Part shown: positions 4,228 through 62,314 of the stretch, piece after piece
Layout: the number at the start of each line of letters is the position of its first letter
How positions within the stretch are numbered: position 1 is the first letter of the stretch
NCBI GenBank assembly: GCA_002793515.1
Contig: PFEU01000018.1
Coordinates: 32,203 to 96,202 of the forward strand
Direction: 5' to 3'
Length of the DNA stretch: 64,000 bases
Source: Candidatus Uhrbacteria bacterium CG10_big_fil_rev_8_21_14_0_10_48_16
Lineage (GTDB): Bacteria; Patescibacteriota; Patescibacteriia; UBA9934; GWF2-40-263
Notes under the pieces: model-generated
What the model saw: only the letters and a program-made list of their open reading frames with translations
Told to the model about the DNA's origin: nothing
The model's database searches: none
Program-made: the position numbers and the translations under genes

Positions 4228-5648
4228 ATATTGCGAACGTACGTAAGATCCGACATCTTCAAAGATTTAGTCAAAACGAGCGCTCCAAGATAGACGAGTC
4301 CACCGATAGGAATCACCACTACCCATCCAACCACGGGTTTCAATCCAATTACCACAGCAAGCATCAGCAACCCACTCATGTAAATGGGGAGAATCGTTTT
4401 AAGAAGTACTCTAAGGGAAAAGCTCGGAAGCACAGAACGGACAAAATAGAGACCCGCAAGGAACATGAAGATAAAGCTTACAAGTGCCGCATACACCGCT
4501 CCAAGGATTGCTATGTGAGGAATCAACACAGCGTTGAACACAATATTTATCACCATAGTCAAACCCATAATGGCTGTCTTTGTCGATTGTCGCCCAGAAG
4601 CATTTAACAGAGCACCAATAGGAAAATCGAGAAAAATTGGGATAAGGACAAATATAAGCATCTGCAAGACAACCCCTGCCTCAAGATAATCCTCTCCCGC
4701 TAAAAGAACCGCATCAGGAGCAATGGCATAAATACCAAAAACGATCGGTGCAGAAAGGATCGCCATATACCACATCGAACGCATCAATATGCGCACCAAG
4801 GCTGACTCATCCTTCCCTACCACGGCACTCATCCCTGGGTATAAAGCGGCAATGAATGCGAGAGGAAGAAACTGAAAGGCATAGGTAAACTTATACGCAA
4901 TAGCATAGAGTCCGACCGCTGTGAGATCGAGCATCTTAGAGATAAAGATGGAATCAACATAGGAGTAGACTTTGACAAAGATTGCGGCGAGGGCAAAGGG
5001 AAAAGCGGTTTTTAGAAACCAAAGCGTTTGCGACTTGGACCACGTCGGCAAAAAAACGCGCCATCCAAGTCGTTTTGCGACTTGTACCCCTGCCACGCAG
5101 ACATTGATAAAGCTTCCTCCCATCAATGCCATAATGAGAAGCGGAAGCGAAGGATACAGCCAAAGGACAAGACCCCCAATCAATGCGGTCATCCCCATAC
5201 TCACAAACACTCCAACGGCCTCATATTGAAGGGCTTGAAAACCCCTGAGGACTCCATAGAGAAAGACCTGAAACGCATCTAGCAACAAGACCGCACAAGC
5301 CAACCAAATGAGGAATTGAATCTCTGGATCATATTGAAGAATGTATCCAGATACGATCGCTCCAAGAATGGCGAGGACGATCAAAGGGAATTTCAATCCA
5401 AGAGCGTAAGAAACGAGCTCTCCTGCTCGATTCTTATTTTTAGCTACTTCACGAATAACCACTGAGGTGATCCCAAAATCCGCAACCACAGAGAAAATGA
5501 CTGTGATCGAAATCGCCAAGAAATATTGTCCCGTTGCGTCTGGCGCCATGATTCTGGCGAGGAACAAAAAGTAGACAAAAGCGATTAACTTTTGTCCAAC
5601 AGAGGCGGCGGTTAAATAGAGGGTATTTTTCGCTACTCGATCAGTCAC
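4224..5648 (-). CDS. polysaccharide/oligosaccharide flippase (Wzx, MOP superfamily)
   Basis: 474 aa with about 12-14 TM helices and the N-terminal pattern of Wzx-like flippases; context with GTs and ligase. Confidence 0.6.
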   Translation of the reverse strand: MTDRVAKNTLYLTAASVGQKLIAFVYFLFLARIMAPDATGQYFLAISITVIFSVVADFGITSVVIREVAKNKNRAGELVSYALGLKFPLIVLAILGAIVSGYILQYDPEIQFLIWLACAVLLLDAFQVFLYGVLRGFQALQYEAVGVFVSMGMTALIGGLVLWLYPSLPLLIMALMGGSFINVCVAGVQVAKRLGWRVFLPTWSKSQTLWFLKTAFPFALAAIFVKVYSYVDSIFISKMLDLTAVGLYAIAYKFTYAFQFLPLAFIAALYPGMSAVVGKDESALVRILMRSMWYMAILSAPIVFGIYAIAPDAVLLAGEDYLEAGVVLQMLIFVLIPIFLDFPIGALLNASGRQSTKTAIMGLTMVINIVFNAVLIPHIAILGAVYAALVSFIFMFLAGLYFVRSVLPSFSLRVLLKTILPIYMSGLLMLAVVIGLKPVVGWVVVIPIGGLVYLGALVLTKSLKMSDLTYVRNI

Positions 5649-5736: not shown

Positions 5737-6732
5737 CTACTCGTCTTCGAACTCCTCGGGGTCCTCAATCTCGACGATCGGGGACTTCGTGTGATGTCCT
5801 CGCCGAGCGAGTTCTGCCAGATCGACGGGCTTGAGGTCGACGAGATCCGGAGCGGCCATCATGGTGAGACCTTCTCCACCACCTTCCCGCAGACCCGCCA
5901 TCAGATTCTGGAGCGGATCCAGACCGAGGTTGGTGTGCCCTACCCGATCGAGGTCGTAGCCGAAGTCCCTGAGCTGACCAGAGACGAAGGCGTCCTGTGC
6001 GTACGTCGCCTTCCAGAGGCTGTGCAGGAGCTCGCCGAAGTACGTGTCGACGATCGTGATCAGCTGATCCCAGTGATCTCCGCCCGATTCCCACGGATCC
6101 ACCTCGGGGATGGGTTCGGTGGGCATGGTGGGATCTGAGGAGTATCCATGCTCATGCAGGTAGTGCTTGATCTTGGCGAATGGCCAGTTCTTGGCCTTCC
6201 ACATGTCCCATTCGTGGTGAAGTCGGGACGTAGAACTTCCCCGGGTGGGAAGCACTCCACGAACGCCTTCCTTGGTGACAACACCCATCATCTCGACGAA
6301 GGTTCCCTCGCGAGGAGGAGCGAGGACTGAGAGAGCTTGGCAACCCTTCTTGAGCCGACCGCTCGCGTCGTAGCGAACGTCGAGGCCTCCCTCCGCACTC
6401 GGAACGAACTTCGGGGCGGGCACATCGAGCGCACCCATCATGGTTCGGTTTATCCTCTTGGCGAAGAGACGCCTGAGGGTCGTCTCCGTGGCCGGGCTGA
6501 CCAGGAATTCCCAGCGGTCGGTGATGATGCCGGGGGTGATCTCCTGCTTCGTGACCGTCAGGCGGACACTCAGCGTGGCGGGAACGAGGAGCCCTCCGGG
6601 CTCCAGTCGGACCGTTCCGATTCCGAGCCTGCGGGCGAGATCGAGATCGTACTTGATCTCCTTTCGCCCACTGGATGCCTCGACCTGAGGTCGAAGCGAG
6701 ACCCTTGCGATGTGAACGGGGGGTTGAGTCAT
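5737..6732 (-). CDS. hypothetical protein, GC-rich insertion (about 60% GC vs about 46% backbone)
   Basis: Long ORF with strong coding periodicity. The ORF-track start at 6753 is a TTG. A canonical SD (GAAGGAGGTG) precedes the ATG at 6732, so MTQPPVHIARV... is the likely N-terminus. No family recognised. Confidence 0.5.
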   Translation of the reverse strand: MTQPPVHIARVSLRPQVEASSGRKEIKYDLDLARRLGIGTVRLEPGGLLVPATLSVRLTVTKQEITPGIITDRWEFLVSPATETTLRRLFAKRINRTMMGALDVPAPKFVPSAEGGLDVRYDASGRLKKGCQALSVLAPPREGTFVEMMGVVTKEGVRGVLPTRGSSTSRLHHEWDMWKAKNWPFAKIKHYLHEHGYSSDPTMPTEPIPEVDPWESGGDHWDQLITIVDTYFGELLHSLWKATYAQDAFVSGQLRDFGYDLDRVGHTNLGLDPLQNLMAGLREGGGEGLTMMAAPDLVDLKPVDLAELARRGHHTKSPIVEIEDPEEFEDE

Positions 6733-6780
6733 GTGTTCACCTCCTTCGCGCAAAATTTAAGCATAAATAGGAAACAAAGT

Positions 6781-32146: not shown

Positions 32147-32260
32147 AGAGAAAAAATATAACGGCGGTAGTGTATGCGATTGAAGGCTTGATCGCAAGTG
32201 GACAACCATTGACGAAGTTCTCTGTAAATGATCTGATAGCCCCTAACCACGGGAGAAATC

Positions 32261-33550
32261 ATGCCATTGTTCAGCCCGGACAGGTGGGTGTATGACCCAC
32301 GCCATCCAGCGACAGTGCTGGATCAGCTCCCGAGGGAGCTCTTTCCACACACGACCACCGCAGATCTCATCGCACACCTTCGTATGGGCGGTGGAAAGTC
32401 CCTCGGGCTTTCCCTGTGTGAGATTCTGACGCACGGATCGGAACACTTCCGCGTCCCAGACTGGCTCTCGTTGCCTGGAACCTATGCGTGGCACCAGCCA
32501 ATCCCTGCCACAACTCAATGGCTCTCTAGCAGAGAGGGTCAACTCAAGGTCCGTAGCTCGACTCGACGGGAAGACTGGCTCACAGGTCAGAGCGGTGAAC
32601 AACACTCGAGGACCGTGAAGGATCTCACGCGAGCACTCCACCATGCGAGCGAGGTCTCCGGTGGGCAACACCCAGTCGTCCTTCAGGATTTTGTCGAAGG
32701 GATCGGGATCGTCGTCGACCTCGCCTACAGCCAGATCCTGGGACAACCGATTGCTCGGGTCTCGACGGGAAGAGAGTGGAAACGCGATTGTGGAGAGCAA
32801 ATCTTCACGTCCGCCACACGGGATCACGAAGGCAGACACGAGATCATCGACCCAATCAGCGGAACCTATCTTCTGGACCGCACAACGGGACATCTCTTCG
32901 AAGGGTCGTGCCTAAGACTTCCTCTTCAGGAGATCGTTGGCGAACTCTGGGAACGCGTTAACGCATTCGGTATCACCTTCGGGGTGCAGTGCGAAATCGT
33001 GGTTCATCCAGACGCTCCAGAAATCTGGTGGCTTGTCCAAATCCGACCCTCCCCTGATCGAGTCCGATCCCACGGGATCAACCTGGAACCCCTTCCAGGG
33101 GCAATGATCACGACCCCTGCAGTGAGTCGAGCGTTCGACCATCGTGGGCTCGCGACCTGTACCACCCCCGAGTCATACACCTGGTTGTTCAACGCATCAA
33201 CCGGAGGTATCACCGACACCATCGAGAGAGAGGGGTGGGAATTCCGTCCCTCAAACATCCTTATCTGGCACAAAGATCCAATCCCTGACTTCGACTCCTG
33301 GATGCTTGAGATGGCATTCACGGTCGGGGTGAAGGTCCAGATCACGAGACGAGTGATCGTCATCAGTACCACCCATAGTGGAATCAACGCACGCGTCCTC
33401 ATGCCCGAACAAAGCGATGTCACCTCACTCGGAGGAATCATCGCCGTCCCTGACGGGCTCCATGACCAACTCGTGCATGAGCTCCAAGGACAGGACAAGG
33501 TCATTCACGCGATCTCCGACGGTCTCGTCGGACAAGTCGCACTCCTCTAA
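32261..33550 (+). CDS. stand-alone PPDK_N / PEP-utilising enzyme ATP-grasp (nucleotide-binding) domain protein; GC-rich insertion
   Basis: MGGGKSLGLSL...KVRSSTRREDWLTGQSGEQ matches the GGK...VRSSAxxED...AGQ signature of the PEP synthase/PPDK N-terminal domain; no phospho-His or PEP-binding domain; about 61% GC. Confidence 0.55.
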   Translation: MPLFSPDRWVYDPRHPATVLDQLPRELFPHTTTADLIAHLRMGGGKSLGLSLCEILTHGSEHFRVPDWLSLPGTYAWHQPIPATTQWLSSREGQLKVRSSTRREDWLTGQSGEQHSRTVKDLTRALHHASEVSGGQHPVVLQDFVEGIGIVVDLAYSQILGQPIARVSTGREWKRDCGEQIFTSATRDHEGRHEIIDPISGTYLLDRTTGHLFEGSCLRLPLQEIVGELWERVNAFGITFGVQCEIVVHPDAPEIWWLVQIRPSPDRVRSHGINLEPLPGAMITTPAVSRAFDHRGLATCTTPESYTWLFNASTGGITDTIEREGWEFRPSNILIWHKDPIPDFDSWMLEMAFTVGVKVQITRRVIVISTTHSGINARVLMPEQSDVTSLGGIIAVPDGLHDQLVHELQGQDKVIHAISDGLVGQVALL

Positions 33551-43259: not shown

Positions 43260-44576
43260 CTAGCGCAGGATGGGGTGTATGCCGTGGGTGTTCACCGTGC
43301 GTGATACCCAGGTCAGGATCTGTTCGTCATGGACCGTGGTCCACACGACTCCTCCGTCGGAATCCATGTGGAGGTTCCAGGCAAGGGGAACTGCCGTCCC
43401 TCGATGCCCGCGGAAGTGTGGGACGTCGTAGATACCTTCGTGTTGGATGTGGGCTTGGATGCGACCATCGTTGCCGAGAAGGACCTCACGGACCTCCGTT
43501 CCAGCCGTTGGTGTCCAGTCGACGTTTGAGCCGACGAATCGACTCGTCGCGAAGCGTCTGCGAGCAGGATCCTGGATGATTCCTGCGACGACAGACAGTT
43601 CGTCTGGTGACCAAGCGACGGTTGCGGGGTCCAGGGTGAAGGACCCTTCGTGGATGACTTCCCCGGTACTGAGCGTCAGTCGACGCACATCCGGAGATGC
43701 TCCGCGGGGATGCGTGAGCATCAGGAGCGTTCCCCCCTTGGGAGAGGACCACACGCCGTGGAACTCCCCATCGATTGAAATCCGTTCAGGCTCTTCGCCG
43801 AACGCTCGACGGTTGAGCTCGACGAGCCAGGACTGCGTCCCGCGGTTGACCGCGAGCATCAGTCGGCCCTGCCAACGGACGAGCCCTGCTGAACGCTGAG
43901 CGTCCCCAGGGTTGACCTGAAGGAAGGAGGTGGCTCCGTGCTCCGTAGCCTGGTAGGCGTAGAGAAGCCCACCGAATGACTCAAGCACACACAGCGTGTC
44001 TTCTTCGCAGACGCGCACGGTTGCCCAAGCATCGACCGGCCAAAGTCCCCACGAGGTGAGGTACAGCTTCTGACCGGGATGCTGTGCAGACGTTCCGACA
44101 GGAACGCGGTTGGGCCGTGGGCCCACAGCGAATTCCAGTCGATCGAGTCGGTGAAGGAACTGACTTGCGTCTTGCGTGAGACGCCAGACTCCCGGCGGAT
44201 GACCTTCCACCCTTCCCCAGACGAGGAGGTCTTCACTCCCCACCCTGAGGATCCGTGTCCCACTTGCTCCCGGCCCGAAGGGACTAAGGAATGCGGGACC
44301 CACCGGACCGAAGGTGGAGTGATAGACGCGCTCGCCAGCAGGATAGGTGCGAATGACTTGTCCGATGAAGAGACCACAGGAACTTGCAACGAGCTGATCC
44401 CCGGAGATCAGCTGAAGAATTCTCAGCGGGGTAGCGGTCTCTGGGATATCGCCGACGCGGATCATCTCCCCCGTGAAGTCGGGGGTGTTCATCCGTACGA
44501 CGTGACTCCGGGGAGGAATCGTGGATTGATGCACGGGAACCTCCATTCTCAGTGGCACACAAGATCGTGTGGTCAT
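43260..44576 (-). CDS. hypothetical protein, GC-rich insertion (about 62% GC)
   Basis: 438-aa ORF with Trp/Gly-rich repeats suggestive of a beta-rich fold; no motif recognised; followed on its transcript by the hairpin GCGCcGACC-aaaga-GGTCtaGCGC plus U-tract at 43236-43270. Confidence 0.4.
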   Translation of the reverse strand: MTTRSCVPLRMEVPVHQSTIPPRSHVVRMNTPDFTGEMIRVGDIPETATPLRILQLISGDQLVASSCGLFIGQVIRTYPAGERVYHSTFGPVGPAFLSPFGPGASGTRILRVGSEDLLVWGRVEGHPPGVWRLTQDASQFLHRLDRLEFAVGPRPNRVPVGTSAQHPGQKLYLTSWGLWPVDAWATVRVCEEDTLCVLESFGGLLYAYQATEHGATSFLQVNPGDAQRSAGLVRWQGRLMLAVNRGTQSWLVELNRRAFGEEPERISIDGEFHGVWSSPKGGTLLMLTHPRGASPDVRRLTLSTGEVIHEGSFTLDPATVAWSPDELSVVAGIIQDPARRRFATSRFVGSNVDWTPTAGTEVREVLLGNDGRIQAHIQHEGIYDVPHFRGHRGTAVPLAWNLHMDSDGGVVWTTVHDEQILTWVSRTVNTHGIHPILR

Positions 44577-46782: not shown

Positions 46783-47619
46783 ATGGCAAAACTCCTTGAT
46801 GGAAAAGCGCTTGGTCTTCGTATTCGCGAAAAGATCAAGTCCCGTATTGAAACGCTCCCAAGTCAACCTGGCTTAGGAGTGATTTTAGTTGGAAACGATC
46901 CGGCCTCGCACTTGTATGTGAGTCTCAAACAACGTGCATGTGAAGAAGCGGGCATTCATTTTGAAGTCTTCCTCTATCCGTCTAGCACACTTGAAGAAGA
47001 TTTGATTGAAAAAGTTCATGAGCTTAACGCTCGAACAGACATCAACGGTATTTTGGTACAACTCCCCCTTCCTTCGCAAAGCGCAGACCGTGTCATTGCC
47101 GTCATCGATCCTCTCAAAGATGTTGATGGATTTCATCCAAAAAATCTTGAACGTCTACGTCGAGGAGAACCCTGCATCGCTTCCGCTGTTGCCCTCGGTG
47201 TCATGCGTCTTATCCGCGAAGCGGTGGGCGAAGGAGCTCTCCCTCCAAACGCGCTGATTGTTTCCTCTCCTCTTTTTGCCGAGCCCCTCAAACTTCTTCT
47301 TCAAGAGGGAGGCGTTGCGACAGACGTGACCCCAGCCGAAGACTCAGAGCTCGCAAGCAAAACACGATCGGCGGATATTCTGATTGTCGCAGAAGGAATG
47401 CCAAAATTGATTACCGGCGACATGGTTAAACCCGGGGCGATTATGATTGATGTTGGAACCACTCGCATAGATGAAGGTTTGGTTGGAGATATAGACTTTG
47501 ATTCCGTCGAACCCATCGTGAGCGCCATCACTCCTGTCCCTGGAGGCGTTGGTCCCATGACCGTCGCTATGCTCCTCGTGAATATTCTCAAAGCCTACAC
47601 ACTCCAACAACAGGATTGA
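46783..47619 (+). CDS. folD: bifunctional methylenetetrahydrofolate dehydrogenase/cyclohydrolase
   Basis: LLDGKA...GxxSxLYV...FolD N-terminus, Rossmann GRSxxVG-like motif. Confidence 0.88.
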   Translation: MAKLLDGKALGLRIREKIKSRIETLPSQPGLGVILVGNDPASHLYVSLKQRACEEAGIHFEVFLYPSSTLEEDLIEKVHELNARTDINGILVQLPLPSQSADRVIAVIDPLKDVDGFHPKNLERLRRGEPCIASAVALGVMRLIREAVGEGALPPNALIVSSPLFAEPLKLLLQEGGVATDVTPAEDSELASKTRSADILIVAEGMPKLITGDMVKPGAIMIDVGTTRIDEGLVGDIDFDSVEPIVSAITPVPGGVGPMTVAMLLVNILKAYTLQQQD

Positions 47620-47684
47620 CGACTTAGTGTTTTCTGTGTAGGTTTGCTTGTTCGTGAGACTCCCTCGCGACCTGACCAACCCCC

Positions 47685-48038
47685 ATGGAGGACACCGTGC
47701 TCATTCTTCACTCTCCTGGTAAGGCACAGCGCCGATTCCGGACGACCATTCTCGATGGCGATCGCTCGCTCGGGCTCTTCTTGAAGGAAGAGGGACGTCT
47801 CCAGGGCTTCCTGGAGATCAACGCTTCCACTCCCGTGAGCGCCCTCGCCCATCTGGTGCGACGGTGGGCAAAGGCCCATGACATCAGTCGGTGGTTCACC
47901 ACCAAGATGATCACCATGGTCGAGGAGGAATTCGAGACGCTGACCGAACTCCAGAAGCACGGCCCCGACATCAGCCTCGGCTGGTTCGGAAGCGACACCG
48001 ATCGCAGGCCCCCCGAGATCTACGAGACCATCCACTAG
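47685..48038 (+). CDS. small hypothetical protein, GC-rich insertion
   Basis: 117 aa, about 62% GC; followed by two hairpin terminators. Confidence 0.35.
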   Translation: MEDTVLILHSPGKAQRRFRTTILDGDRSLGLFLKEEGRLQGFLEINASTPVSALAHLVRRWAKAHDISRWFTTKMITMVEEEFETLTELQKHGPDISLGWFGSDTDRRPPEIYETIH

Positions 48039-48123
48039 CGACCACGTCGCTCCACGCATACCGACGAACCACTCGTCGGCTCTCCCCCCACCTTCTCGGT
48101 GGGTTTTACTTTATTTGCGAATC

Positions 48124-51294: not shown

Positions 51295-51606
51295 ATGTTC
51301 AACAAACTCAAACACATCAAGGATCTAAAAAAACAGGGAAAGGTCATGCAGAATGAGCTTGCCAGTGTCGTGCATGAAGGATCTTCCGCGCATGGAAAGG
51401 TAAAAATAGTCGTGAACGGAAATCGAGACCTTGTGGAAGTCACTATTGATCCAGAATTTCTCTCTGACGCAAAGAAGCTCGAAGAAGCGATTAAGAGCGC
51501 CTGGAAAGATGCAACAGGGATGAAGTTTCAAATGAAGCTCGCAAAGAAAATGCAGGATATGGGCGGACTCGACATGCTAAAAAACCTAGGGGGAGGTGGA
51601 GAATAG
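51295..51606 (+). CDS. ybaB: nucleoid-associated protein YbaB/EbfC
   Basis: 103 aa, GKVKIVVNGNRDLVEVTIDPEFL signature. Confidence 0.85.
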   Translation: MFNKLKHIKDLKKQGKVMQNELASVVHEGSSAHGKVKIVVNGNRDLVEVTIDPEFLSDAKKLEEAIKSAWKDATGMKFQMKLAKKMQDMGGLDMLKNLGGGGE

Positions 51607-52213
51607 ACCTGTGCGTCGGTTCCCTGAACCTATTTCAAATCTTGTCGCGGCGTTTGCGCGACTTCCTGGCGTAGGGCCAAAGACGGCCCTACGTTATGTT
51701 TTTTATCTTCTTCAACAACCAAAATTCGATCTCGACGTGATGGCACGCGCACTCACACAACTCGGAGAGCGCATTCAAACCTGCTCCCGATGTTACACCT
51801 ACACAGAAAGCGAAACGTGTGAGATTTGTTTGGATCCAAAGCGTGATCCCTCTCTCTTGTGTGTCGTCGAAGAAGCACGCGACATCTCCACGATCGAAGC
51901 GACTGGAATGTATTCTGGGTTCTATCATGTCCTCGGGGGAACCCTGAATCCCATCGAAGGCATGACGCCCGACACCATCCGCTTGCGCCAGCTTAAGGCT
52001 CGATTAGAGACGAGTCCGGACGTAAAGGAAATCATCCTCGCCCTCTCTCCCACCGCACACGGAGAAGCCACCATCATGTTCATCCAAAAACAACTTGCCT
52101 CCCCTGGTCGCACCATGACGCGCCTCGCCCGAGGACTCCCACTCGGTGCCACCCTCGAATTCGCCGATGAAGTAACCCTCACTGACGCGCTCAAAGGAAG
52201 AAAGAAACTTTAA
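51596..52213 (+). CDS. recR: recombination protein RecR
   Basis: HhH LPGVGPKTA, C4 Zn finger CSRC...CEIC, Toprim. Confidence 0.9.
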   Translation: MENRPVRRFPEPISNLVAAFARLPGVGPKTALRYVFYLLQQPKFDLDVMARALTQLGERIQTCSRCYTYTESETCEICLDPKRDPSLLCVVEEARDISTIEATGMYSGFYHVLGGTLNPIEGMTPDTIRLRQLKARLETSPDVKEIILALSPTAHGEATIMFIQKQLASPGRTMTRLARGLPLGATLEFADEVTLTDALKGRKKL

Positions 52214-52299
52214 TTCTGGTCGATGGTGACAACGAGAGTGTTGCCTAAAATAAAACGCACGCTGTTCGTGTTTCGACGAGGCGTGCGCCGTGGGTGGAC

Positions 52300-52665
52300 T
52301 CAGAGATGCGATGCGGGTGTGCTGTTCTCCTTCTCGAAAGTTGTGGGGACGTACCCCACCAGGATCATGCCCTCCGAGCACGTGAGAATATGCTCCTCAT
52401 GCGGGGAAAACATGAACATGACAGGAGCCTGGAGCTCACGCTCCTGAACACCGTCGACCTGTGTCCAGGTTCGAACCCGGCACCGCCCCTGGATGAGGAA
52501 GAACCCTTCCGCATGGGGATGGGAGTGGTTGCCCAGTTGCACTCCATCCTTCTGTGTGATGAGTACTTTCCCCTCCACCGTGTGCGGAAAATCCGCAGAA
52601 GGACGGAACGCTGTCAGCGTCCGCCTCTCGTCCGTATGACTGTCTGCCACAGGGAATATCTCCAT
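52300..52665 (-). CDS. cupin-domain protein, GC-rich (about 60%)
   Basis: Cupin motifs G(x)5HxH...E and P-G-x-x-H-x-H-x-N (HSHPHAEGFFLIQGRCRV; FMFSPHEEH); strong SD AAGGAAGGAA before the ATG. Confidence 0.55.
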   Translation of the reverse strand: MEIFPVADSHTDERRTLTAFRPSADFPHTVEGKVLITQKDGVQLGNHSHPHAEGFFLIQGRCRVRTWTQVDGVQERELQAPVMFMFSPHEEHILTCSEGMILVGYVPTTFEKENSTPASHL

Positions 52666-52973
52666 GTCGTTCCTTCCTTATTTTAGTTTTTTGACTAAAT
52701 TCAACGTACAACAATTAGGCCCGTATGTCAATCGAACGAGAGGAAAGACTGATTTAAAATAACCCATAATATAAGGAGAAAGCGATATGTTCTGTGCCTT
52801 CCATCTAAATTCTGTACTGGAAACTGCAAGCCTGAGGCGGTAACATAGATTTGTTGTGATGTGAAACTAATGCTCCAAACCTTCACGCCTTTCAATTGTT
52901 TTTTGCACAACAAAGGGATACACGGTTTGGGTCTCAGTTCAGGTCTCACCCCTCCGTAAACCATTCGAGATTC

Positions 52974-53010
52974 ACTGCAAACGACATTAGACAATTATCG
53001 CGCGTTAAGC
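52974..53010 (+). repeat. partial attC-like site 0 (ACTGCAAACGACATTAGAC...GTTAAGC) upstream of the first cassette ORF
   Basis: Shares the ACTGCA...(A/G)(A/C)(C/T)(G/A)TTAG(A/C)(C/T) pattern with sites A-C; GTTAAGC fits GTTRRRY. Confidence 0.25.
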
Positions 53011-53042
53011 GAAACAAGTGTGAACATCATATAATTCGATCT

Positions 53043-53822
53043 ATGTTTGGATTACTACGTTTTGAATATTACCTAGCAGGCAGACAGCTATGGTTTAGTA
53101 AAGCTGGACACTTATACTCTCCAAAACTAATGCTTGGCTATGCAATTGAGACAAGTCTTAAACATGGCCTTTTAATTATTGAGGATGCAGGAGTCAGCTT
53201 GGACCAAGATGCAAAAAGTATCCGAGGTAAAAGTCATGATTTAAAAGAGCTACTAAGCACATGTGTTAGATATAATCTCTTCTCAACAATAGATACTTCG
53301 GACGACTTTTTGGACTTTGCTACCAAAGGACTCAACAGCCGATATCCAAAACATATACGAGATAATTTTGATGAAGCTAGCAACAGAGATCCTTATTTAC
53401 TCACAATTAATGTTGGAGAAACTATAGGATACTATGATGATTTAATGCTCAAACTTGATGATGAAATCTGGTCTATAACAAATAAACCAGAATTTTCTGT
53501 TGGATTTCGTGGATCATCACAGGCAAGTTCAGCCACAGGGAAAATATTTTTTCATTGTAACCTTCCTGCAATGCAGAGACTTAAAAAGTACCATGCAACC
53601 GTATCAGAACATAGATCTCATCACGTTAGTGATATTGAATCACTGAATAAGGGGGAGGAATTTTTGTGGAAATATGAAGACCGGTCAACGATAAGTAAAT
53701 CTACTTCTTATGACTCATCAACATTCAAATATAAAAGTGTTGAAGAGACAGAGATTACACTTCACGATGGAACTAAAATTATTGATTATGGTCCGCAACT
53801 AAAAATGTGGTTTCACATTTAA
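53043..53822 (+). CDS. cassette ORF A: hypothetical protein (AT-rich island)
   Basis: 259 aa from MFGLLRFEYYLAG...; the track ORF begins at 52896 but would cross attC-like site 0; no SD; about 35% GC. Confidence 0.4.
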   Translation: MFGLLRFEYYLAGRQLWFSKAGHLYSPKLMLGYAIETSLKHGLLIIEDAGVSLDQDAKSIRGKSHDLKELLSTCVRYNLFSTIDTSDDFLDFATKGLNSRYPKHIRDNFDEASNRDPYLLTINVGETIGYYDDLMLKLDDEIWSITNKPEFSVGFRGSSQASSATGKIFFHCNLPAMQRLKKYHATVSEHRSHHVSDIESLNKGEEFLWKYEDRSTISKSTSYDSSTFKYKSVEETEITLHDGTKIIDYGPQLKMWFHI

Positions 53823-53826
53823 CTAC

Positions 53827-53883
53827 GCCTAACACTGCATATCCAAAATACTAGCTACTTCGGATCATGCAGAAACGTTAGAT
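53827..53883 (+). repeat. attC-like site A (57 bp): GCCTAAC-ACTGCATATCC...GGATcATGCAG-aaac-GTTAGAT
   Basis: The ends match the integron attC core consensus (RYYYAAC and GTTRRRY) exactly; the internal imperfect palindrome CTGCAT-ATCC / GGAT-c-ATGCAG carries one unpaired base. Confidence 0.5.
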
Positions 53884-53915
53884 ACCATACACCTTACCAA
53901 TTAAAGAAGAAAAAC

Positions 53916-54410
53916 ATGCAGGATTTACTCGAACAAATAGAAAAAGGGCTTGAGGCTAATCTTTATTACTTATCACTTTTTGTAGCCTTGGCTATTCCAG
54001 ATATATGTGGAGCAATTGACGCATCGGATGGCGAAGCTTCAAAAGCAAAATATATAAAATGGTTCGATGAACACTTACAAACCAAATATAGCACTTCGTT
54101 TAATGGTGAACTTTGCTATTATTTTAGGTGCTCGCTTCTTCATCAAGGTTCATCTCAACATTCGAAAAGTAGATACAAACGAATAATGTTCATTGAACCA
54201 GACAGAAGCATAAGAATTCATCGAAGTATTATGAATGATGCTTACTTCATAGACGTAAAAGACTTTTGTAATGATATGGTCGAAGCCTGCAAAGGATGGC
54301 TGCAAAAAGTGGAAACGACACCTTTATTCCAAACAAATTCTATTAAATTTATAATGCGTTATCCTCAAGGCCTCAAACCTTATGTTAGCGGAGTTCCAGT
54401 AATCGGCTGA
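53916..54410 (+). CDS. cassette ORF B: HEPN-like protein (Rx4H motif)
   Basis: 164 aa; N-terminal helix LYYLSLFVALAIPDICGAI and ...YYFRCSLLHQGS containing R-x4-H as in HEPN RNase domains; motif-level only. Confidence 0.4.
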   Translation: MQDLLEQIEKGLEANLYYLSLFVALAIPDICGAIDASDGEASKAKYIKWFDEHLQTKYSTSFNGELCYYFRCSLLHQGSSQHSKSRYKRIMFIEPDRSIRIHRSIMNDAYFIDVKDFCNDMVEACKGWLQKVETTPLFQTNSIKFIMRYPQGLKPYVSGVPVIG

Positions 54411-54416
54411 CACAGC

Positions 54417-54503
54417 ACTTAACACTGCATAAACGGTTACGCTTCATTTCTTTCCGCTTCGCCCATATTGATTCGCAACATCAGATATACGCAGACGTTA
54501 GCT
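54417..54503 (+). repeat. attC-like site B (87 bp): ACTTAAC-ACTGCATAAACG...ATATACGCAGAC-GTTAGCT
   Basis: The 5' end matches RYYYAAC; the 3' GTTAGCT is one mismatch from GTTRRRY; imperfect palindrome CTGCATA / TACGCAG with an extra G. Confidence 0.45.
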
Positions 54504-54608
54504 AAACTATCTCTTTTCTTTTTTAAACCATCCCTCCTTCACTAAGACTATAACAAACAAATACCAAATTATTTAAAAACTTAGTGAACGTCTTTTTTTA
54601 TCAATAAT

Positions 54609-54991
54609 ATGATGAAAGTAGAGTTTAAAAAATCTAAATTGCATGGCATTGGTATTTTCGCCATGGCTGATATTCAAGCTGATGAAATTATTGAAATCTG
54701 TCCAATAATAATGTTGAATGCAAAAGATACAAACGAGATCGATAAAACACATTTGTATGATTATTATTTCAGTTGGAGAGAACAAGGTTCTGCAATTTCT
54801 TTAGGATATGCTCACTCTATAATCATTCTTACGAACCCAATGCTAAATACGATAAAGATTTTGTAAACAATCGGATTGTTTTTACATCAGTTAAAACAGT
54901 TAAAAAGGGCGAAGAAATTACTGTGAATTACAATGGAGATCCTGATAAGAAAGAAAAGGTTTGGTTTGAAAAATCAGAATTGAATAGCTAA
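54609..54991 (+). pseudogene. cassette ORF C: SET-domain lysine methyltransferase interrupted by a +/-1 frameshift near 54808-54815
   Basis: Frame 1 gives the N-SET part (KSKLHGIGIFAMADIQADEIIEICPIIML...); the downstream frame gives LYNHSYEPNAKYDKDFVNNRIVFTSVKTVKKGEEITVNY, the NHSCxPN/ELxxxY SET core. The two halves overlap in DNA at ...ggatatgctcactctataatcat..., consistent with a single-base indel. Confidence 0.6.
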
Positions 54992-55053
54992 AGTGAACTC
55001 CAAGCTTGCTCCGTTTCACTCTGCAAAACACCGCAAATACTGAAATGTTAGCT
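54986..55053 (+). repeat. attC-like site C (68 bp): AGCTAAAG...CTGCAAAACACCGCAAATACTGAAAT-GTTAGCT
   Basis: The 3' end GAAATGTTAGCT is nearly identical to sites A (GAAACGTTAGAT) and B (AGACGTTAGCT); the 5' AGCTAAA pairs with the 3' TTAGCT. Confidence 0.4.
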
Positions 55054-55311
55054 GAAATATGTATACCCTAGAATTATCAAACCCTATGAAGTTTGAGATA
55101 ATTTATCTAAACGAGTAAACACACATCACATCATATAAGACACATAAAAAACTTCCGATGTTGGTTATGTTTTGTATAAGAAAAGCCCCGAGTGAAGTCG
55201 AGCAGTGGCTCTTCTCCACGCGGGGCGCGTGTCATCACACCGGTTCGACCTAGCTCATGCGTCCACTAGACGATGACTCCTCGGTCGAGTTGGTGTGGGG
55301 ATGTGGGTTGT

Positions 55312-55899
55312 CTACCCGTTGGCGTCCGCCTTGCTGGGAGCGTCGTGCTCGGCGAGGACGTCGTCCCAGGTGCTGAGGAAGATCTCGCCCATGTCGGGTC
55401 GGTAGATCAGGGCGTGCGTGGTCCAGAACTCGAGCGAGTCCTGGCGCTCGTTGGTATCGGGCTTGGTGTTGCACGGCTCGTTGGGAGCGATCACGCCCGG
55501 GTAGCAGGTGACGAGCATGAACTCATCAAGGAAGACCTTCTTGCCATCCTCCCACTTGAACTTCGGCTGAACGACGACGACCAAGGTCGAGACGTCCGGG
55601 ATGCTGTTCGTCGGGAGGAGGAGGACTCGACTGGGGCCCTTGCGCGGGCCCCGACGGACGAACTGGAGCTCCTCGTTGGTGTGAGAAGCGAGGGTGGTGA
55701 CCAGCGTCGCCGGAGCGATCGACCGGCCCATCTGGACCTCGAAGGCCTTCTTGTCCGTCACGTTGGTCAGGTCGAGTCCCCCGATGCATCCCTCGAAGAG
55801 GACGACCAGGTTCTCGTCTCGTGCCCAGTACTCCTGGGCGTTGGGGTAGGGAAAGACGGATGAACCGTCACGGGTCGTGTAAACGTCACCGAGAGGCAT
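55312..55899 (-). CDS. hypothetical protein, GC-rich insertion (about 62% GC)
   Basis: Likely start is MPLGDVYTT preceded by the SD GGAGGG; the track start at 55971 overlaps a terminator hairpin; followed on its transcript by the hairpin CGCGCCCCG...CGGGGC plus U-tract near 55200-55250. Confidence 0.35.
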   Translation of the reverse strand: MPLGDVYTTRDGSSVFPYPNAQEYWARDENLVVLFEGCIGGLDLTNVTDKKAFEVQMGRSIAPATLVTTLASHTNEELQFVRRGPRKGPSRVLLLPTNSIPDVSTLVVVVQPKFKWEDGKKVFLDEFMLVTCYPGVIAPNEPCNTKPDTNERQDSLEFWTTHALIYRPDMGEIFLSTWDDVLAEHDAPSKADANG

Positions 55900-55950
55900 G
55901 AAGCCCTCCTGTCCTCGACCAGGGATTGGCGAGAGACAAACCAAGGTATC

Positions 55951-55990
55951 AAAAAACAGGCCCTTTGTCAATGCATAGGCCTGTTTTCTT
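55951..55990. terminator. bidirectional terminator ACAGGCC-(15 nt loop)-GGCCTGTTTTCTTT
   Basis: 7-bp GC-rich stem with T-tracts on both strands, downstream of the ABC exporter. Confidence 0.5.
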
Positions 55991-55995
55991 TCCTT

Positions 55996-57774
55996 TTACT
56001 CCAGGAATCCGCCGGCTTGGATCTCCCACAACTTCTTGTAGATATTGGTCTTCTTTTTAAGAAGTTGATCGTGTGTGCCGGAATCAACAACTTGACCTTC
56101 ATCGATCACGAGAATGCGATCCATCTTCATGATGGTCGACAGACGATGCGCAATGACAATGGTGGTTTTTCCTTTCATCAGCTCCTCAAGCGCTTGCTGG
56201 ATCAGCAACTCAGATTCTGAATCAAGACTGGAGGTAGCCTCATCAAGGACAAGAATTGGTGCGTTCTTGAGAATGGCTCGAGCAATGGCAATCCGCTGAC
56301 GCTCTCCCCCCGACAACTTTACCCCACGCTCTCCCACGAAGGTTTCATAGCCTTGGGAAAGACTCTCAATAAACTCATGAGCGTGTGCCTTTTTCGCGGA
56401 TTCAATCACCTCTTCATCTGTCGCGTCTCTTCGTCCGTACCGAATATTTTCCATCACAGTTCGATGGAACAAGATCGGTTCCTGAGGAACAAGAGCAAGA
56501 TTTTCACGCAGACTCTCCTGCGTGACCTTTGCGATGTTTTGGTTCCCGATGAGGATCTTTCCTCTCTCCACATCATAGAAGCGGAACAGAAGTTTTGTGA
56601 TGGTCGACTTCCCCGCCCCAGAAGGACCCACCAACGCGATTTTTTCTCCTGACTCAATAACAAGATTCATGTCACGAAGAATACGCCGAGTCTTATTGAA
56701 GCTAAAAAAGACATTCTGAAACTCAATCCTTCCTGTTTGAACTTGAAGTTCTTTCGCTGTTCGCGCATCTTTAATCTCGATAGGCATCTGAAGAATCTCC
56801 ACCATCTCATCTGCATCCGCCAGTGCGGTAAACACACGACGAACCGCACGACCAAAGTCCCAAATCTTCATGAAAATTCCAATGAGATATCCTTGAATCA
56901 ATGCAAAGTCTCCAATGGTGAGCACGCCTTGTTGCCAAAGTTTCACCGCGTAATACATGATGATAAACTCAATGGCAAACATGAACGCGGATTGAAATGC
57001 TTCAAGAATCTCGGCAAGATTCCACGTGAACGTATTGGATCTTCGAAGTCGCTCCGTGACCTCTTTGTACAATGTTTTCTCGAAGCCTTTTCCCGTAAAC
57101 AACTTAACCGTCACGGCATTGGTAATAGAATCTGCAGCGATTCCTGTTGCTTCGGAATCAATCGCGGCGCGTCTGAAATCATACTTAAGCTTCCATCGTG
57201 CATAGAGAATATTAAACACCATGAACGACACGACCCACACAAGAAGAATCAGGGCCAAGAAGGTACTGCGCGTTGCCAGCACAATCAAATTCCCCGTAAG
57301 AACGATGGTCAGAGGAATAAAGTGATACTGAATCTGATCGGCTACATCCTCAAACGATCGCGAGAGTCGACTCACTTTTCTCACCAATGACCCAGCGAAA
57401 TTGTTAGAAAAGAATTTGTACGAATGTTCATGCAGATGTGCCAACGAGGTCTGTTCTAGATCTGCCATCATGCGTGGCTGAAACCAGTTACTGATCAGAT
57501 TTGATACACGCCACATCACCCACATTCCCCCATGTATGACCGCCACAATAATCAATGTCCCTACAAGAAGCGATGGAAGCTGATCTGGATCAGCAGGAAG
57601 ATCACCGGAGAGCAGATCGAAAAATCGCTTGTAGAACAGTGGAGCGATCACGTCGAGAATATTTGAAATCCCAATCAAGAAGAGAATCAAAAAGAGACGT
57701 CCTTTATATCGACGCGCATGTTCCCAATACACTTTGAGAATTTGACGTGTTTGAATTTTTTCTGTGTTTTTCAT
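55996..57774 (-). CDS. ABC transporter permease/ATPase fusion (MsbA/exporter type)
   Basis: 6 TM N-domain; Walker A GPSGAGKST, signature LSGGERQR, Walker B ILVLDEATS. Confidence 0.85.
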   Translation of the reverse strand: MKNTEKIQTRQILKVYWEHARRYKGRLFLILFLIGISNILDVIAPLFYKRFFDLLSGDLPADPDQLPSLLVGTLIIVAVIHGGMWVMWRVSNLISNWFQPRMMADLEQTSLAHLHEHSYKFFSNNFAGSLVRKVSRLSRSFEDVADQIQYHFIPLTIVLTGNLIVLATRSTFLALILLVWVVSFMVFNILYARWKLKYDFRRAAIDSEATGIAADSITNAVTVKLFTGKGFEKTLYKEVTERLRRSNTFTWNLAEILEAFQSAFMFAIEFIIMYYAVKLWQQGVLTIGDFALIQGYLIGIFMKIWDFGRAVRRVFTALADADEMVEILQMPIEIKDARTAKELQVQTGRIEFQNVFFSFNKTRRILRDMNLVIESGEKIALVGPSGAGKSTITKLLFRFYDVERGKILIGNQNIAKVTQESLRENLALVPQEPILFHRTVMENIRYGRRDATDEEVIESAKKAHAHEFIESLSQGYETFVGERGVKLSGGERQRIAIARAILKNAPILVLDEATSSLDSESELLIQQALEELMKGKTTIVIAHRLSTIMKMDRILVIDEGQVVDSGTHDQLLKKKTNIYKKLWEIQAGGFLE

Positions 57775-59672: not shown

Positions 59673-62314
59673 AATTCAACCCCCTTTTCAATACGAATCT
59701 TTCCACCTGCCTCAAGAACAATCCTATCGCGCCGTCTGACGTTTCCTTCCAGAAGCGCATTTGCAATCGCGTTATCAACCTCTTCTTGAACCAGACGTCT
59801 CAGTGGTCGTGCGCCAAACTTAGGATCAAAGCCACGCTCAGCCAGCTCTGCCACGGCTGACTCCTCTGCCGTAAATCCAATCCCTTTTGGTTCCAAGCGG
59901 GTCGCAACAGCAGACATGAAGATCTTGGTTATCTCCTTTACATCGTCCGGGGTAAGTGGCTTAAAGACGATAATTCCATCAAAACGGTTTAAGAATTCAG
60001 GTCGATAAATCCCCTGAAGTTCTTCTTCGATTAACTGCGTCTTGATTGTCTCCATGGAATCTCCTCGAGCGACTGCGTCTTGAATGTACTGAGTTCCTGC
60101 GTTCGAAGTTGAAATAACAATGGTATTTGTAAAATCAATCGTGCGTCCCACGGAATCCGTTAGACGACCATCTTCAAATACCTGAAGGAATACATTGAGA
60201 ATATCAGGATGCGCCTTTTCGAGTTCATCCAGAAGCACGATGGCAAACGGCTGTTTACGCACCGCCTCTGTCAATAGCCCTCCTTGGTTTGACCCGGGAG
60301 CTCCAAGAAGCCGATTAATACTCGACGCTTCTTGATACTCAGACATGTCCATGCGGATCATCATGTTCTCATCACCGAAATAGGTTTCAGCCACGGTCTT
60401 TGCCAGCTCCGTCTTTCCCACACCTGTCGGACCAAGAAAAAGGAAGGTCGCGATTGGGCGCCCCTGCGAACGCAAATCTGTGCGAGCCCGTCGAAGAGCG
60501 GAAGCTACCGCCTTAACGGCTTCATCCTGACCAATCACGCGTCCATGCATCTTATCTTCCAATGAAAGTAGCTTGTCCTTTTCATCTTCGGCAACGGACA
60601 TGGTTGGAATCCCTGTTTTTGAGCTCACAATCGAGGCAACATCCTCCCCGGTCACAAGCGCATCTTCTCCCTTTGTTTTTGAAACTTGAAGACCGGCTTC
60701 TCGAGCCACCTCAATCGCTTTCTTTGGAAGATACGTTTCATGCATGTAGCGATCTGAAAGAGTCACCGCTTTCTCAACCGCTTCATAAGTAAAAATCACA
60801 TTATGTTCGTACTCGATGCTTCCAATTTTTGACTGAAGCATGTGAATCGCAGATTCCTGATCTGGCTCAAGCAGATCCACCTTTTGAAACGACCGTCCTA
60901 AAATAGAGCGCTCAACAAGACGTGTGTATGCCTGCGAAGTGGTTGTGGCAATCGCGAACGTCCCACTTCGAGAGAGGAAATCGACAAGCGTTGCTCCAAG
61001 ATCCGTGGCCTCTGTGGTTCCCTGTGCCACAAGCTGATCAATGTCCGTAATCGCGAGAATAATATTTCGAGAACGAGCGACTTCAGAAAAAATTTGCAAG
61101 AGTCGCTCCTGTGCCTGTGAGGGATTCGCTCCGGAGACAAGATGCGGGATGGAAATGCGAACCAGGCGCCGATCCTGAAGAATCTTCGGAACTTCTTCTC
61201 TGACCATCAGGTCCGCAATCCCGGCGAGGACCGTGGATTTTCCAACCCCCTCTGGCCCCACAAGAACGACACTTTGACGTCCGCCTTCAATGACGCGAAA
61301 AATTTCTTCTACCTGTGACTCTCGATCAATCATCATTGGCAGGCGCCCACTCACGGCGGCAGTTGTCAGATCTTCTGAGACCGCATCAAGCATAGGAGTG
61401 GCGATACTCGTCATTGCGCGGTTCATCGGACCTGTTGGTTTATACATGGCGGCCTTGCGAGATTGTTTGTAACGCTCACGCATGTTCTCATGAATCCGCA
61501 ACCAGGCAATCATGTTATGAAACTTCGTCTCGTCGACACCCTTATCAAGGAACAATTCTCGAATAAATGCATCTTGCTCATACACCCCCGCAAAAATCTC
61601 GAGGGAACTTATCTCGCTTCGATCTTCGGATACCGCCCGACGAAATGCTTCGAGAAACACACGCTCTCCTTCCAAAGATAAACGTGGGGGCTTCCCAAGC
61701 TCTCTGGTTTGAAGACGGCGTCCAACAGCGTCTTGCAAATCCGCAAAAGAAAGACCTAAACGTCCGAAGACGACCGAGACATCCGAAGCATCTATGGTTC
61801 CGACAAAAATATGAAGGAGTTCGACATTCTTGTGACCAAATTTTGTTGCGAGCTCAAACGCCCGTTCGATCGAGGCGGTCGCGTCCGCAGAAAATAGATC
61901 CGCAAGATTCACATGTGTCCCCTCGCTTTGAAACGACACAACCTCTGGAACCTCCTCTGATCCTGTTGGCATGACGGCCGAGAGCGTTCCTACAAGCGAC
62001 TGATGGAAGTAAAGAAACGCCACAAATAACCCTGTGGCATACAGAAAGACTCCCGTCCATGAAGGGTCAACCCAAAACGCACTCGTCAACACCGAAGAAA
62101 ATCCTTGTACAAACAACAGAACGAGCGTGATCAATCCTGCCACCACCAACTTTCCAAACGCCACTCCACTTAACAGTTTTGAGGCCGAGAGTCGAGCGGA
62201 ACGTTCTCGAACATGTTCCTCGTCCATAAACGCCGACCAGGAGTAGCTCTTTCCATCAAGTTGTACTTCAAATTCTGGCATAGCGTTACAGAACACCAAT
62301 AAGATGTGAAACAA
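59669..62314 (-). CDS. Clp/Hsp100-family double-AAA+ ATPase (ClpC-like) with N-terminal transmembrane segment
   Basis: Two AAA modules (VLVGPEGVGKST...; FLFLGPTGVGKTELAK...), Clp_N repeat (ELLHIFVGTID...); residues about 30-110 contain 2-3 hydrophobic helices. Confidence 0.75.
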   Translation of the reverse strand: MFHILLVFCNAMPEFEVQLDGKSYSWSAFMDEEHVRERSARLSASKLLSGVAFGKLVVAGLITLVLLFVQGFSSVLTSAFWVDPSWTGVFLYATGLFVAFLYFHQSLVGTLSAVMPTGSEEVPEVVSFQSEGTHVNLADLFSADATASIERAFELATKFGHKNVELLHIFVGTIDASDVSVVFGRLGLSFADLQDAVGRRLQTRELGKPPRLSLEGERVFLEAFRRAVSEDRSEISSLEIFAGVYEQDAFIRELFLDKGVDETKFHNMIAWLRIHENMRERYKQSRKAAMYKPTGPMNRAMTSIATPMLDAVSEDLTTAAVSGRLPMMIDRESQVEEIFRVIEGGRQSVVLVGPEGVGKSTVLAGIADLMVREEVPKILQDRRLVRISIPHLVSGANPSQAQERLLQIFSEVARSRNIILAITDIDQLVAQGTTEATDLGATLVDFLSRSGTFAIATTTSQAYTRLVERSILGRSFQKVDLLEPDQESAIHMLQSKIGSIEYEHNVIFTYEAVEKAVTLSDRYMHETYLPKKAIEVAREAGLQVSKTKGEDALVTGEDVASIVSSKTGIPTMSVAEDEKDKLLSLEDKMHGRVIGQDEAVKAVASALRRARTDLRSQGRPIATFLFLGPTGVGKTELAKTVAETYFGDENMMIRMDMSEYQEASSINRLLGAPGSNQGGLLTEAVRKQPFAIVLLDELEKAHPDILNVFLQVFEDGRLTDSVGRTIDFTNTIVISTSNAGTQYIQDAVARGDSMETIKTQLIEEELQGIYRPEFLNRFDGIIVFKPLTPDDVKEITKIFMSAVATRLEPKGIGFTAEESAVAELAERGFDPKFGARPLRRLVQEEVDNAIANALLEGNVRRRDRIVLEAGGKIRIEKGVEL

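Follow-up and report, generated by a model that had tools for sequence, protein, structure and literature searches.

Does the genome of a bacterium of the Candidate Phyla Radiation (CPR) hold a gene-cassette array of the integron type, and if so, is the array still at work? The question is raised by the region at ~53.0-55.05 kb of a 64-kb stretch of Candidatus Uhrbacteria DNA (the whole stretch that was analysed, hereafter the window), in which open reading frames (ORFs) followed by sites resembling attC, the recombination site of integron cassettes, had been predicted from the letters of the sequence. The most probable answer, with a probability of roughly 0.75, is that the region is a short integron-type cassette array of three units without a nearby integrase, a frozen relic of the CALIN type (cluster of attC lacking an integron integrase, as defined by IntegronFinder and distributed broadly in Bacteria; PMC9024848). 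The original prediction of an attC-like array of this type is supported in a weaker, fossil form. The integron reading draws its support from the ranks given to the first site (site A) by covariance models, the occurrence of the second cargo gene (ORF B) in cassettes elsewhere, and a homology that is bounded at GTT.

The three units and their attC-like sites

Inspection of the region revealed three plus-strand units, namely ORF A with site A, ORF B with site B, and a SET-domain pseudogene with site C. Their parts are as follows.

53004-53010, plus strand: orphan core-site-like GTTAAGC (fits GTTRRRY), without a partner arm
53043-53822, plus strand: ORF A, 259 aa, cargo of cassette 1, function unassigned by searches
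53827-53883, plus strand: site A, 57 nt, structurally intact; R'' GCCTAAC at 53827-33, R' GTTAGAT at 53877-83
53878-54497, plus strand: cassette 2 by its crossover points (TTAGAT ... G), comprising leader, ORF B and site B; limits taken from homology to a second locus, L014
53916-54410, plus strand: ORF B, 164 aa, HEPN-like, with an invariant R71-x4-H76; cargo of cassette 2
54417-54503, plus strand: site B, 87 nt, weak structure; R'' ACTTAAC at 54417-23, R' GTTAGCT at 54497-503
54609-54991, plus strand: frameshifted SET-domain gene (ORFs 54609-54866 and 54773-54991), pseudogene; cargo of cassette 3
54986-55053, plus strand: site C, 68 nt, degenerate attC remnant; AGCTAAA at 54986-92, R' GTTAGCT at 55047-53

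Each unit consisted of a single promoterless ORF with a site directly downstream, and all units were co-oriented, which is the arrangement of gene cassettes; matches of a promoter scan were no better than chance. Three co-oriented ORFs had been claimed, and the three plus-strand units stood, whereas the predicted ORF C turned out to be a SET gene broken by a frameshift: its matches to the two halves of the Pfam SET domain, N-terminal and C-terminal, lay in different frames, and the frameshift was present in every contig of the same population that spanned that point. Both ORF A (COV05_04160) and ORF B (COV05_04165) were identical to proteins of Candidatus Uhrbacteria CG10_big_fil_rev_8_21_14_0_10 encoded on a contig of 171.6 kb, by which the proposal of a CPR-like host was borne out. 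The sharply AT-rich island that had been described was also real, the G+C content (GC) falling to 0.30-0.37 at 53.0-55.0 kb as compared with ~0.46 for the window.

The core-site-like ends were present where they had been predicted, giving lengths of 57, 87 and 68 nt. In attC sites, RYYYAAC and GTTRRRY ends lie 57-141 nt apart, and ends of this kind were found here: site A fitted the two motifs at 7/7 and 7/7 positions, site B at 7/7 and 6/7, and site C at 5/7 and 6/7. The sites had been placed 4-8 nt after the stop codons, which was correct for site A (4 nt past the stop of ORF A) and site B (6 nt past that of ORF B) but not for site C, in which AGCTAAA overlaps the stop codon of the third gene. 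A fourth partial site had been suspected ~35 nt upstream of ORF A; what was found is the GTTAAGC at 53004-10, 32 nt before the ATG of ORF A, but it has no partner arm. The same distance separates R' of site A from the ATG of ORF B, and GTTAAGC is putatively the left boundary of cassette 1.

Sites A and B had in common an exact 12-mer, TAACACTGCATA, of which only these two exact copies occur in the 64 kb. The pattern RYYTAAM...GTTAGNY was observed three times on the plus strand in the island, once at site B and twice at site A, where the starts overlap, against 0.05 expected. Imperfect palindromes had been claimed at all three sites, a description that held for site A, while sites B and C folded like shuffled sequences. 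Folded as bottom-strand DNA, site A reached -10.1 kcal/mol (z = -3.9), with 0/200 shuffles as stable, and formed a hairpin in which the R box has 6 bp and the L stem 10 bp. Sites of an Acidobacteriota array (L018), a Nitrospirae array (L035) and L014, the second Uhrbacteria locus, had the same layout: the R box (6-8 bp) is separated by a 5'-side bulge of 3-4 nt from the L stem (~10 bp). Because it recurs in these arrays, the short-spacer layout may be a variant class rather than a defect.

Three covariance models were built from attC sites outside the window. The first, R1, was made from 20 different cassette attC sites of class 1 integrons, which had been recovered from plasmids with an intI1 query (including those of aadA1, aadA2, aadB, dfrA1, dfrA12, dfrA15, dfrA16, dfrA27, dfrB2, blaVIM-1, blaIMP-1, blaOXA-1, catB3, arr-3, aac(6') variants and qacL); the R-box/L-box structure of its alignment was 81% paired and showed clear covariation. 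When the whole 64 kb was searched on both strands with filters off, the top two R1 matches, both on the plus strand, were site A (15.9 bits, expectation value E = 0.12) and site B (9.7 bits, E = 4.3). Calculated over 8 kb, as the local mode of IntegronFinder would do, E was 0.015 and 0.53, respectively. R1 does work as an attC model: it detected 25 attC sites, all on the plus strand and with E down to 1e-7, in 81 loci carrying homologues of ORF B. R2, built from these 25 environmental attC sites, also ranked site A first in the window (14.6 bits), lost site B and gave no gain over R1.

The third model, R3, was built from five short-spacer sites outside the window; since a MAFFT alignment of the full-length sites was structurally inconsistent, they were trimmed, and the 14 pairs in agreement across all rows were used. 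With R3, site A ranked first in the whole window with 23.0 bits (E = 5.8e-4) and was matched from end to end, including the L stem and a bulged C; site B was matched only in part. R3 was specific: in 0.8 Mb of other loci, it reported nothing apart from two canonical attC sites and the one training member present there. A weak R3 match was also noticed at 60112-60165 on the plus strand (12.7 bits, E = 0.5, AAATAAC...GTTAGAC); it lies inside a clpB-like gene of the opposite strand and is probably due to chance. A search of Rfam gave nothing relevant at 51.5-56.5 kb at E ≤ 10, and no match anywhere in the window at gathering thresholds.

These results make a strong case that site A belongs to the attC family, with a non-canonical spacer and bulge geometry. 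Site A is an intact attC-like site, site B is degraded and site C is a remnant. A CALIN is called where two or more attC sites are spaced by less than 4 kb and intI is absent over the same distance. With R1 as a surrogate (local E ≤ 1) this is what was obtained, sites A and B lying 534 nt apart, and the call stands provided that the model of IntegronFinder itself agrees.

Counterparts in other genomes

The ORF B family comprises more than 200 proteins of ~165 aa, distributed in Nitrospirota, Acidobacteriota, Chloroflexota, Cyanobacteria, Proteobacteria, Verrucomicrobiota, Firmicutes, several CPR lineages and Archaea (Pacearchaeota and Bathyarchaeota). The family has no annotation and shows invariant PDIxG and CYxFRCSLLH (R-x4-H) motifs and HEPN-like fold matches, and ORF B itself matched nothing in NCBIfam and PADLOC; the family is a candidate toxin or defence RNase. 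Significant attC sites, as scored by R1, flank ORF B homologues in at least nine other genomes, many of them directly adjacent; the attC-flanked homologues are the closer ones, with 40-56% identity. In Methylocaldum (L064), the homologue stands in an array that adjoins a true integron integrase (IntI), which is encoded 0.8 kb upstream in divergent orientation, matches IntI1 at 1e-97 and has the IntI-specific insertion. In both L018 and L035, a GCCTAAC...GTTAGGC site begins 6 nt past the stop codon of the ORF B homologue. ORF B therefore belongs to a cargo family found as cassettes in bona fide integrons, which was not seen for ORF A in the three homologue contexts that were analysed.

More distant ORF B relatives (24-44% identity) were found on at least 80 viral contigs of IMG/VR. 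In a Firmicute, Desulfosporosinus sp. HMP52 (L058), a tyrosine recombinase without the IntI-specific insertion is encoded on the minus strand at 3823-4689, 1.3 kb upstream of the ORF B homologue, and attC was not detected in that locus; the ORF B family therefore also travels with other recombinases.

The closest comparison is provided by L014, in which the ORF B copy (P0002) is 85% identical. RpoA of L014 is 72-74% identical to RpoA proteins named as Uhrbacteria, and the locus is assigned on sequence comparison to a second, different Uhrbacteria lineage. There the copy occupies a different locus, flanked by folD and a cupin gene to one side and by a ygjV-like gene to the other. When the DNA of the two loci is aligned, homology (85%) sets in abruptly at GTTAGAT/GTTAAGT, extends across the ORF as far as ...CACAGCACTTAACA and is taken up again at GACGTTA; outside these breakpoints, no homology between the two was found. 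Since the homology ends after ACTTAACA and the neighbours differ on both sides, ORF B is contained in a unit bounded by G|TT, and its limits are those expected of a unit moved by a G|TT crossover. Close copies of ORF A and of the SET gene were not found elsewhere.

The sites themselves are also related. L014_3, which follows a methyltransferase cassette in L014, was similar to the whole of site B; L018_2, from the Acidobacteriota array, was similar to L014_3 and to the 3' part of site B; the 3' 48 nt of site C were similar to L014_3, site A was similar to site B, and the 3' half of site A to that of L014_1 (p < 0.003 vs shuffles in all cases). By these similarities, the sites of the window, L014 and L018 form one family. 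It was also noticed that the two copies of the ORF B cassette have their attC ends in common but not the centre (window 54417-54503, 87 nt, vs L014 10502-10634, 133 nt), and that the centre of site B is homologous to the attC of the methyltransferase cassette in L014 (12098-12195). This pattern suggests exchange or homogenisation between attC sites.

For ORF A, no match was found in Pfam, NCBIfam or PADLOC and no significant fold match; its homologues are seven only, all distant (30-34% identity), and relatives on viral contigs were not found. At 8001-10420 of L116, one homologue forms a small AT-rich island of three genes with an ORF of 123 aa and the gene of a DUF4238 protein; lipoate/glycine-cleavage genes border the island on one side and a prenyltransferase gene on the other. 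Each gene of that island is followed by a similar palindrome (AAAATAGGGACAG...CCTATTT), which looks like a host-specific terminator family and not attC.

Integrase search and setting of the insert

Searches for a tyrosine recombinase, with IntI1 as a phmmer query and with a profile of three sequences (IntI1 and two recombinases found elsewhere; E ≤ 10), detected none in the 64-kb window, as had been predicted. The 10 kb past the right end of the window contained no recombinase either, and code for DnaJ, Hsp70, GrpE, HrcA and other housekeeping proteins; the phmmer and profile searches were negative in L014 as well. Relative to the array, the search was negative from 52 kb upstream to ~19 kb downstream. 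A complete integron has a divergent intI beside the array; no such gene was present in the window and the next 10 kb, and the position of intI beside the first cassette is taken by a cupin gene and recR. Because intI was searched for and not found, the array is not to be filed as a complete integron.

Cassettes are mobilised by an integron integrase that recognises attC when its bottom strand is folded into R box, unpaired spacer and L stem, with strand exchange between G and TT of GTTRRRY. Most probably, the cassettes described here were assembled or acquired by such an integrase in the past, from a cassette pool common to the other Uhrbacteria lineage and to arrays of the Acidobacteriota and Nitrospirota types, and then decayed without it. 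For excision or reshuffling, an integrase would now have to be provided in trans, and site A is probably the only site at which either could take place. The array appears frozen because there is no nearby IntI, only site A can fold, sites B and C have decayed, the SET gene is a pseudogene and no variation was seen in the sampled population.

The array is part of a larger insert, the other features of which are given with its neighbours.

51596-52213, plus strand: recR, left neighbour of the insert
52214-55995, no strand: lineage-specific insert of 3.8 kb between recR and the ATP-binding cassette (ABC) exporter
52300-52665, minus strand: cupin-like ORF, GC 0.58; weak Cupin_2 and ectoine-synthase matches, all below curated cut-offs
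52690-53003, plus strand: AT-rich non-coding leader of 313 nt, read from the sequence
55185-55226, minus strand: GC-rich hairpin followed by a T-run (inverted repeat I6), terminator-like, for the 219-aa gene
55312-55971, minus strand: orphan ORF of 219 aa, GC 0.62, GC at third codon positions (GC3) 0.84; codon-position GC favours the minus strand
55996-57774, minus strand: ABC exporter, right neighbour of the insert

The insert was compared with 58 loci with RecR of 40-85% identity; the relatives keep the synteny dnaB-ybaB-recR | ABC-L21. In L118, L119, L129, L148, L174, L150 and L130, the gap between recR and the ABC gene is 30-106 nt; in other relatives it holds unrelated DNA of 0.3-4.6 kb. 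None of these relatives had a homologue of any gene of the insert, whether ORF A or ORF B, the SET gene, the cupin gene or the 219-aa ORF. Since the relatives are empty at this place or have unrelated content, 52214-55995 is lineage-specific, and the island, for which comparison with sister genomes had been proposed, is absent from them and not conserved. The junction itself (52213/55996; L118-L175) was empty in at least seven loci and held unrelated inserts in at least 11. No convincing attC-like site was detected in the other junction inserts (best R1 match 14.5 bits, E = 0.41; no regular-expression match), and the junction was rejected as an integron platform, being a general hot spot whose inserts are without such sites.

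Fifteen contigs of the same population from other samples were 99.98-100% identical over the stretch that each covers, and no polymorphism in the presence or order of cassettes was found among them. An assembly chimera was rejected, the junctions being identical in the 15 independent contigs. Five independent contigs of the same population (L004, L006, L008, L010 and L177) end within 60 nt, at 55208-55266, where the AT-rich block passes into the GC-rich gene beside the GC-rich hairpin; these clustered ends could reflect strain heterogeneity or an artefact of assembly or coverage.

The AT-rich stretch is bordered by two GC-rich ORFs of the minus strand, the cupin-like one and that of 219 aa, each of which is probably a separate acquisition; the former is divergent from the array and the latter lies outside it, with no family match in Pfam, NCBIfam and PADLOC. 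Both Uhrbacteria arrays have a small divergent cupin-fold gene just upstream of the first cassette, at the usual position of intI (window 52300-52665, minus strand; L014 9351-9743, minus strand). The two cupins are not homologous, and the idea that they form a conserved part of the platform was therefore rejected. The leader between the cupin-like ORF and the array holds CTGCAAACGACATTAGAC at 52975-52992, similar to the 3' ends of sites A and B. No attC was detected in it by R1, R2 and R3, it did not fold (z = +1.8), and homology to L014 was not found.

On the right, the hairpin at 55185-55226 forms the edge of the AT-rich block and was the only terminator-like site near the array in a terminator scan. 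Public gene calls place a plus-strand ORF of 196 aa at 55273-55863, overlapping the minus-strand ORF at 55312-55971. The minus-strand gene is probably the real one, since its GC3 is 0.84 as compared with 0.59 for the plus-strand call and the terminator-like hairpin is on its strand. With these two, several GC-rich stretches (0.56-0.63) of one or two ORFs are dotted among the housekeeping genes of this genome with GC ~0.46, namely 5737-6753 (minus), 32243-33550, 43260-44576 (minus), 47595-48059 (minus), 52300-52665 (minus) and 55312-55971 (minus). They had no significant Pfam match, the cupin alone giving weak, sub-threshold ones, and look like separate acquisitions from high-GC donors; a single family of paralogues was rejected, as they are not paralogous to one another. 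No tRNA genes were detected, and the insert is therefore not regarded as a tRNA-targeted island.

Weighing the readings against known systems

Several points weigh against a cassette array of the integron type. The first concern the geometry of site A. Its unpaired bases had been likened to the extrahelical bases of attC, and this likeness failed: there is a single bulged base, on the L' arm, whereas the unpaired bases of class 1 sites (columns 16 and 39) are on the R''/L'' arm. In place of the ~5x6 internal loop of class 1 sites, it has a one-sided bulge of 3 nt, the top-strand unpaired spacer being 1 nt vs 4 nt instead of 5 vs 6, so that the canonical spacer and extrahelical bases by which the strand is chosen are not those of site A. 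Sites B and C had fold z values of ~0 relative to shuffles and formed no R/L hairpin in the minimum-energy fold; both are structurally degraded, and one of the cargo genes is a pseudogene.

The models, too, have their limits. R1, R2 and R3 are surrogates for attc_4.cm of IntegronFinder, and the R1 matches to sites A and B cover the R boxes and the adjacent spacer only, with borderline E values over the window. The L boxes are skipped because of the short-spacer fold layout, as opposed to the ~5x6 unpaired spacer of class 1 sites. Site C was detected by none of the three models. Neither attI nor the promoter Pc could be identified, the orphan GTTAAGC at 53004 being all that is visible and the promoter scan remaining at chance level; attI differs from one integron class to another without conservation.

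Comparison with other genomes adds to these points. Neither R1 nor R3 detected attC-like sites around the ORF B homologues of seven further CPR loci and a DPANN locus. Although the ORF is 85% identical between the window and L014, the central parts of the attC sites in the two ORF B cassettes do not align, a pattern that simple co-inheritance of ORF and attC does not predict. No attC was found, by model or by eye, around the ORF A homologues (L115-L117), and it is by site A alone that ORF A counts as a cassette.

Among the other readings, the one that survives best is an integron system still at work, in which an integrase encoded outside the window acts in trans and the cassettes remain mobile. 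The intact structure of site A, significant with R3, would suit it. So would the finding that two Uhrbacteria lineages have the same cassette, each at its own locus and among its own neighbours, and the attC family common to both, which recalls the lineage-specific attC homogeneity of sedentary chromosomal integrons; the integrase could be encoded in the ~100 kb of contig or the rest of the metagenome-assembled genome (MAG) that the search left uncovered. Such a system is nevertheless unlikely in view of the long recombinase-free surroundings, the degradation of sites B and C and of the SET cargo, the uniformity of the 15 contigs in cassette presence and order, and the other CPR loci that have the ORF B family without attC sites. 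Its fullest form, in which Uhrbacteria own a functional integron system with distinctive short-spacer attC sites, an integrase elsewhere and the recR|ABC junction as one insertion site, is doubtful to the same degree. If true, ultra-small symbiotic bacteria would capture genes by means of integrons and be tied in this way to the cassette pools of Acidobacteriota and Nitrospirota.

There is a still smaller chance that the island is left over from some other mobile element, for example a prophage or a fragment of a defence island, and that its core-like motifs are coincidental or serve a different recombinase. This reading could account for the distant ORF B relatives on viral contigs and for the HEPN-like nature of ORF B, a typical defence or toxin cargo; a homologue of ORF B in L019 adjoins a DDE transposase, and unrelated inserts in relatives mark the recR|ABC junction as a general hot spot. 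It leaves out of account that no phage, transposase or recombinase gene was found in the island, that the homology breaks exactly at the GTT core and the inverse core, that the closer ORF B homologues are flanked by significant attC sites, and that site A fits models made from independent attC sites. That the sites are lineage-specific transcription terminators or elements like repetitive extragenic palindromes, as their position directly after stop codons and the stable hairpin of site A might suggest, is very improbable, since within the window they have no T-run and AT-rich stems, the terminator scan was silent on sites A-C, the 12-mer occurs only twice, no model matched behind any ordinary gene, and sites B and C form no hairpin; this alternative, raised in the original prediction as one to be checked, was not supported.

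Integron cassettes are one of the main ways in which foreign genes are sampled by bacteria and, according to recent work, by archaea too. A cassette array in a tiny-genome member of the CPR (Patescibacteria), even a decayed one, shows that genes of the integron pool reach these organisms; its family of recombination sites is common to a second Uhrbacteria lineage and an Acidobacteriota array. The ORF B cargo occurs as cassettes in the diverse genomes described above and also in archaeal genomes and on viral contigs, so that a widespread HEPN-like family of cassette proteins without annotation is flagged. Short-spacer attC sites are seen by class 1-trained models through their R boxes only, and such sites may therefore be under-detected.

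As a frozen relic, the array resembles CALINs in several respects: two or more sites of the attC type fall within 4 kb and accompany single promoterless ORFs that run in the same direction, intI was not found nearby, the cargo is unknown or toxin-like, and the setting is a patchy island acquired horizontally. It differs from them in its host, a member of the CPR, and in the state of its sites, since site A alone has kept its structure, while the surrogate models pick up site B at the borderline and miss site C. Integrons had been said to be essentially undescribed in the CPR, and in full-text searches of the searchable literature we found no paper describing integrons or CALINs in this group. 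Beside the CALINs spread widely in Bacteria, the nearest precedent is in archaea, where mostly CALINs have been described, in MAGs that include those of ultra-small DPANN; attC sites are shared between phyla, which was read as a flow of cassettes over deep taxonomic boundaries, and some genomes have IntI genes and arrays that are often long (Ghaly et al. 2022; PMC9668308). The present case is unlike that set, being a decayed array of three units without IntI in a bacterial CPR host.

Class 1 attC sites have spacers of 5/6 nt and unpaired bases on the R''/L'' arm, as compared with a spacer of 1/4 nt and a bulge on the L' arm in site A, and it is because of these differences in spacer and bulge geometry that the class 1 model aligns the R boxes only. 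The likeness to class 1 sites lies in the RYYYAAC/GTTRRRY ends, the A after AAC, the C before GTT, the imperfect hairpin, the position directly after the stop codon and the equal strand polarity. In sedentary chromosomal integrons, such as the Vibrio superintegron with its VCR (Vibrio cholerae repeat) elements, the attC sites of different cassettes are alike in related hosts. The array described here is tiny in comparison and no intI, attI or Pc platform was found with it, and its site family, being present in an Acidobacteriota array (L018_2), is not strictly host-specific. It is like the sedentary integrons in that its cargo is mostly of unknown function or toxin-like, and in that site B is similar to L014_3 and site A to L014_1 regardless of the cargo that they follow.

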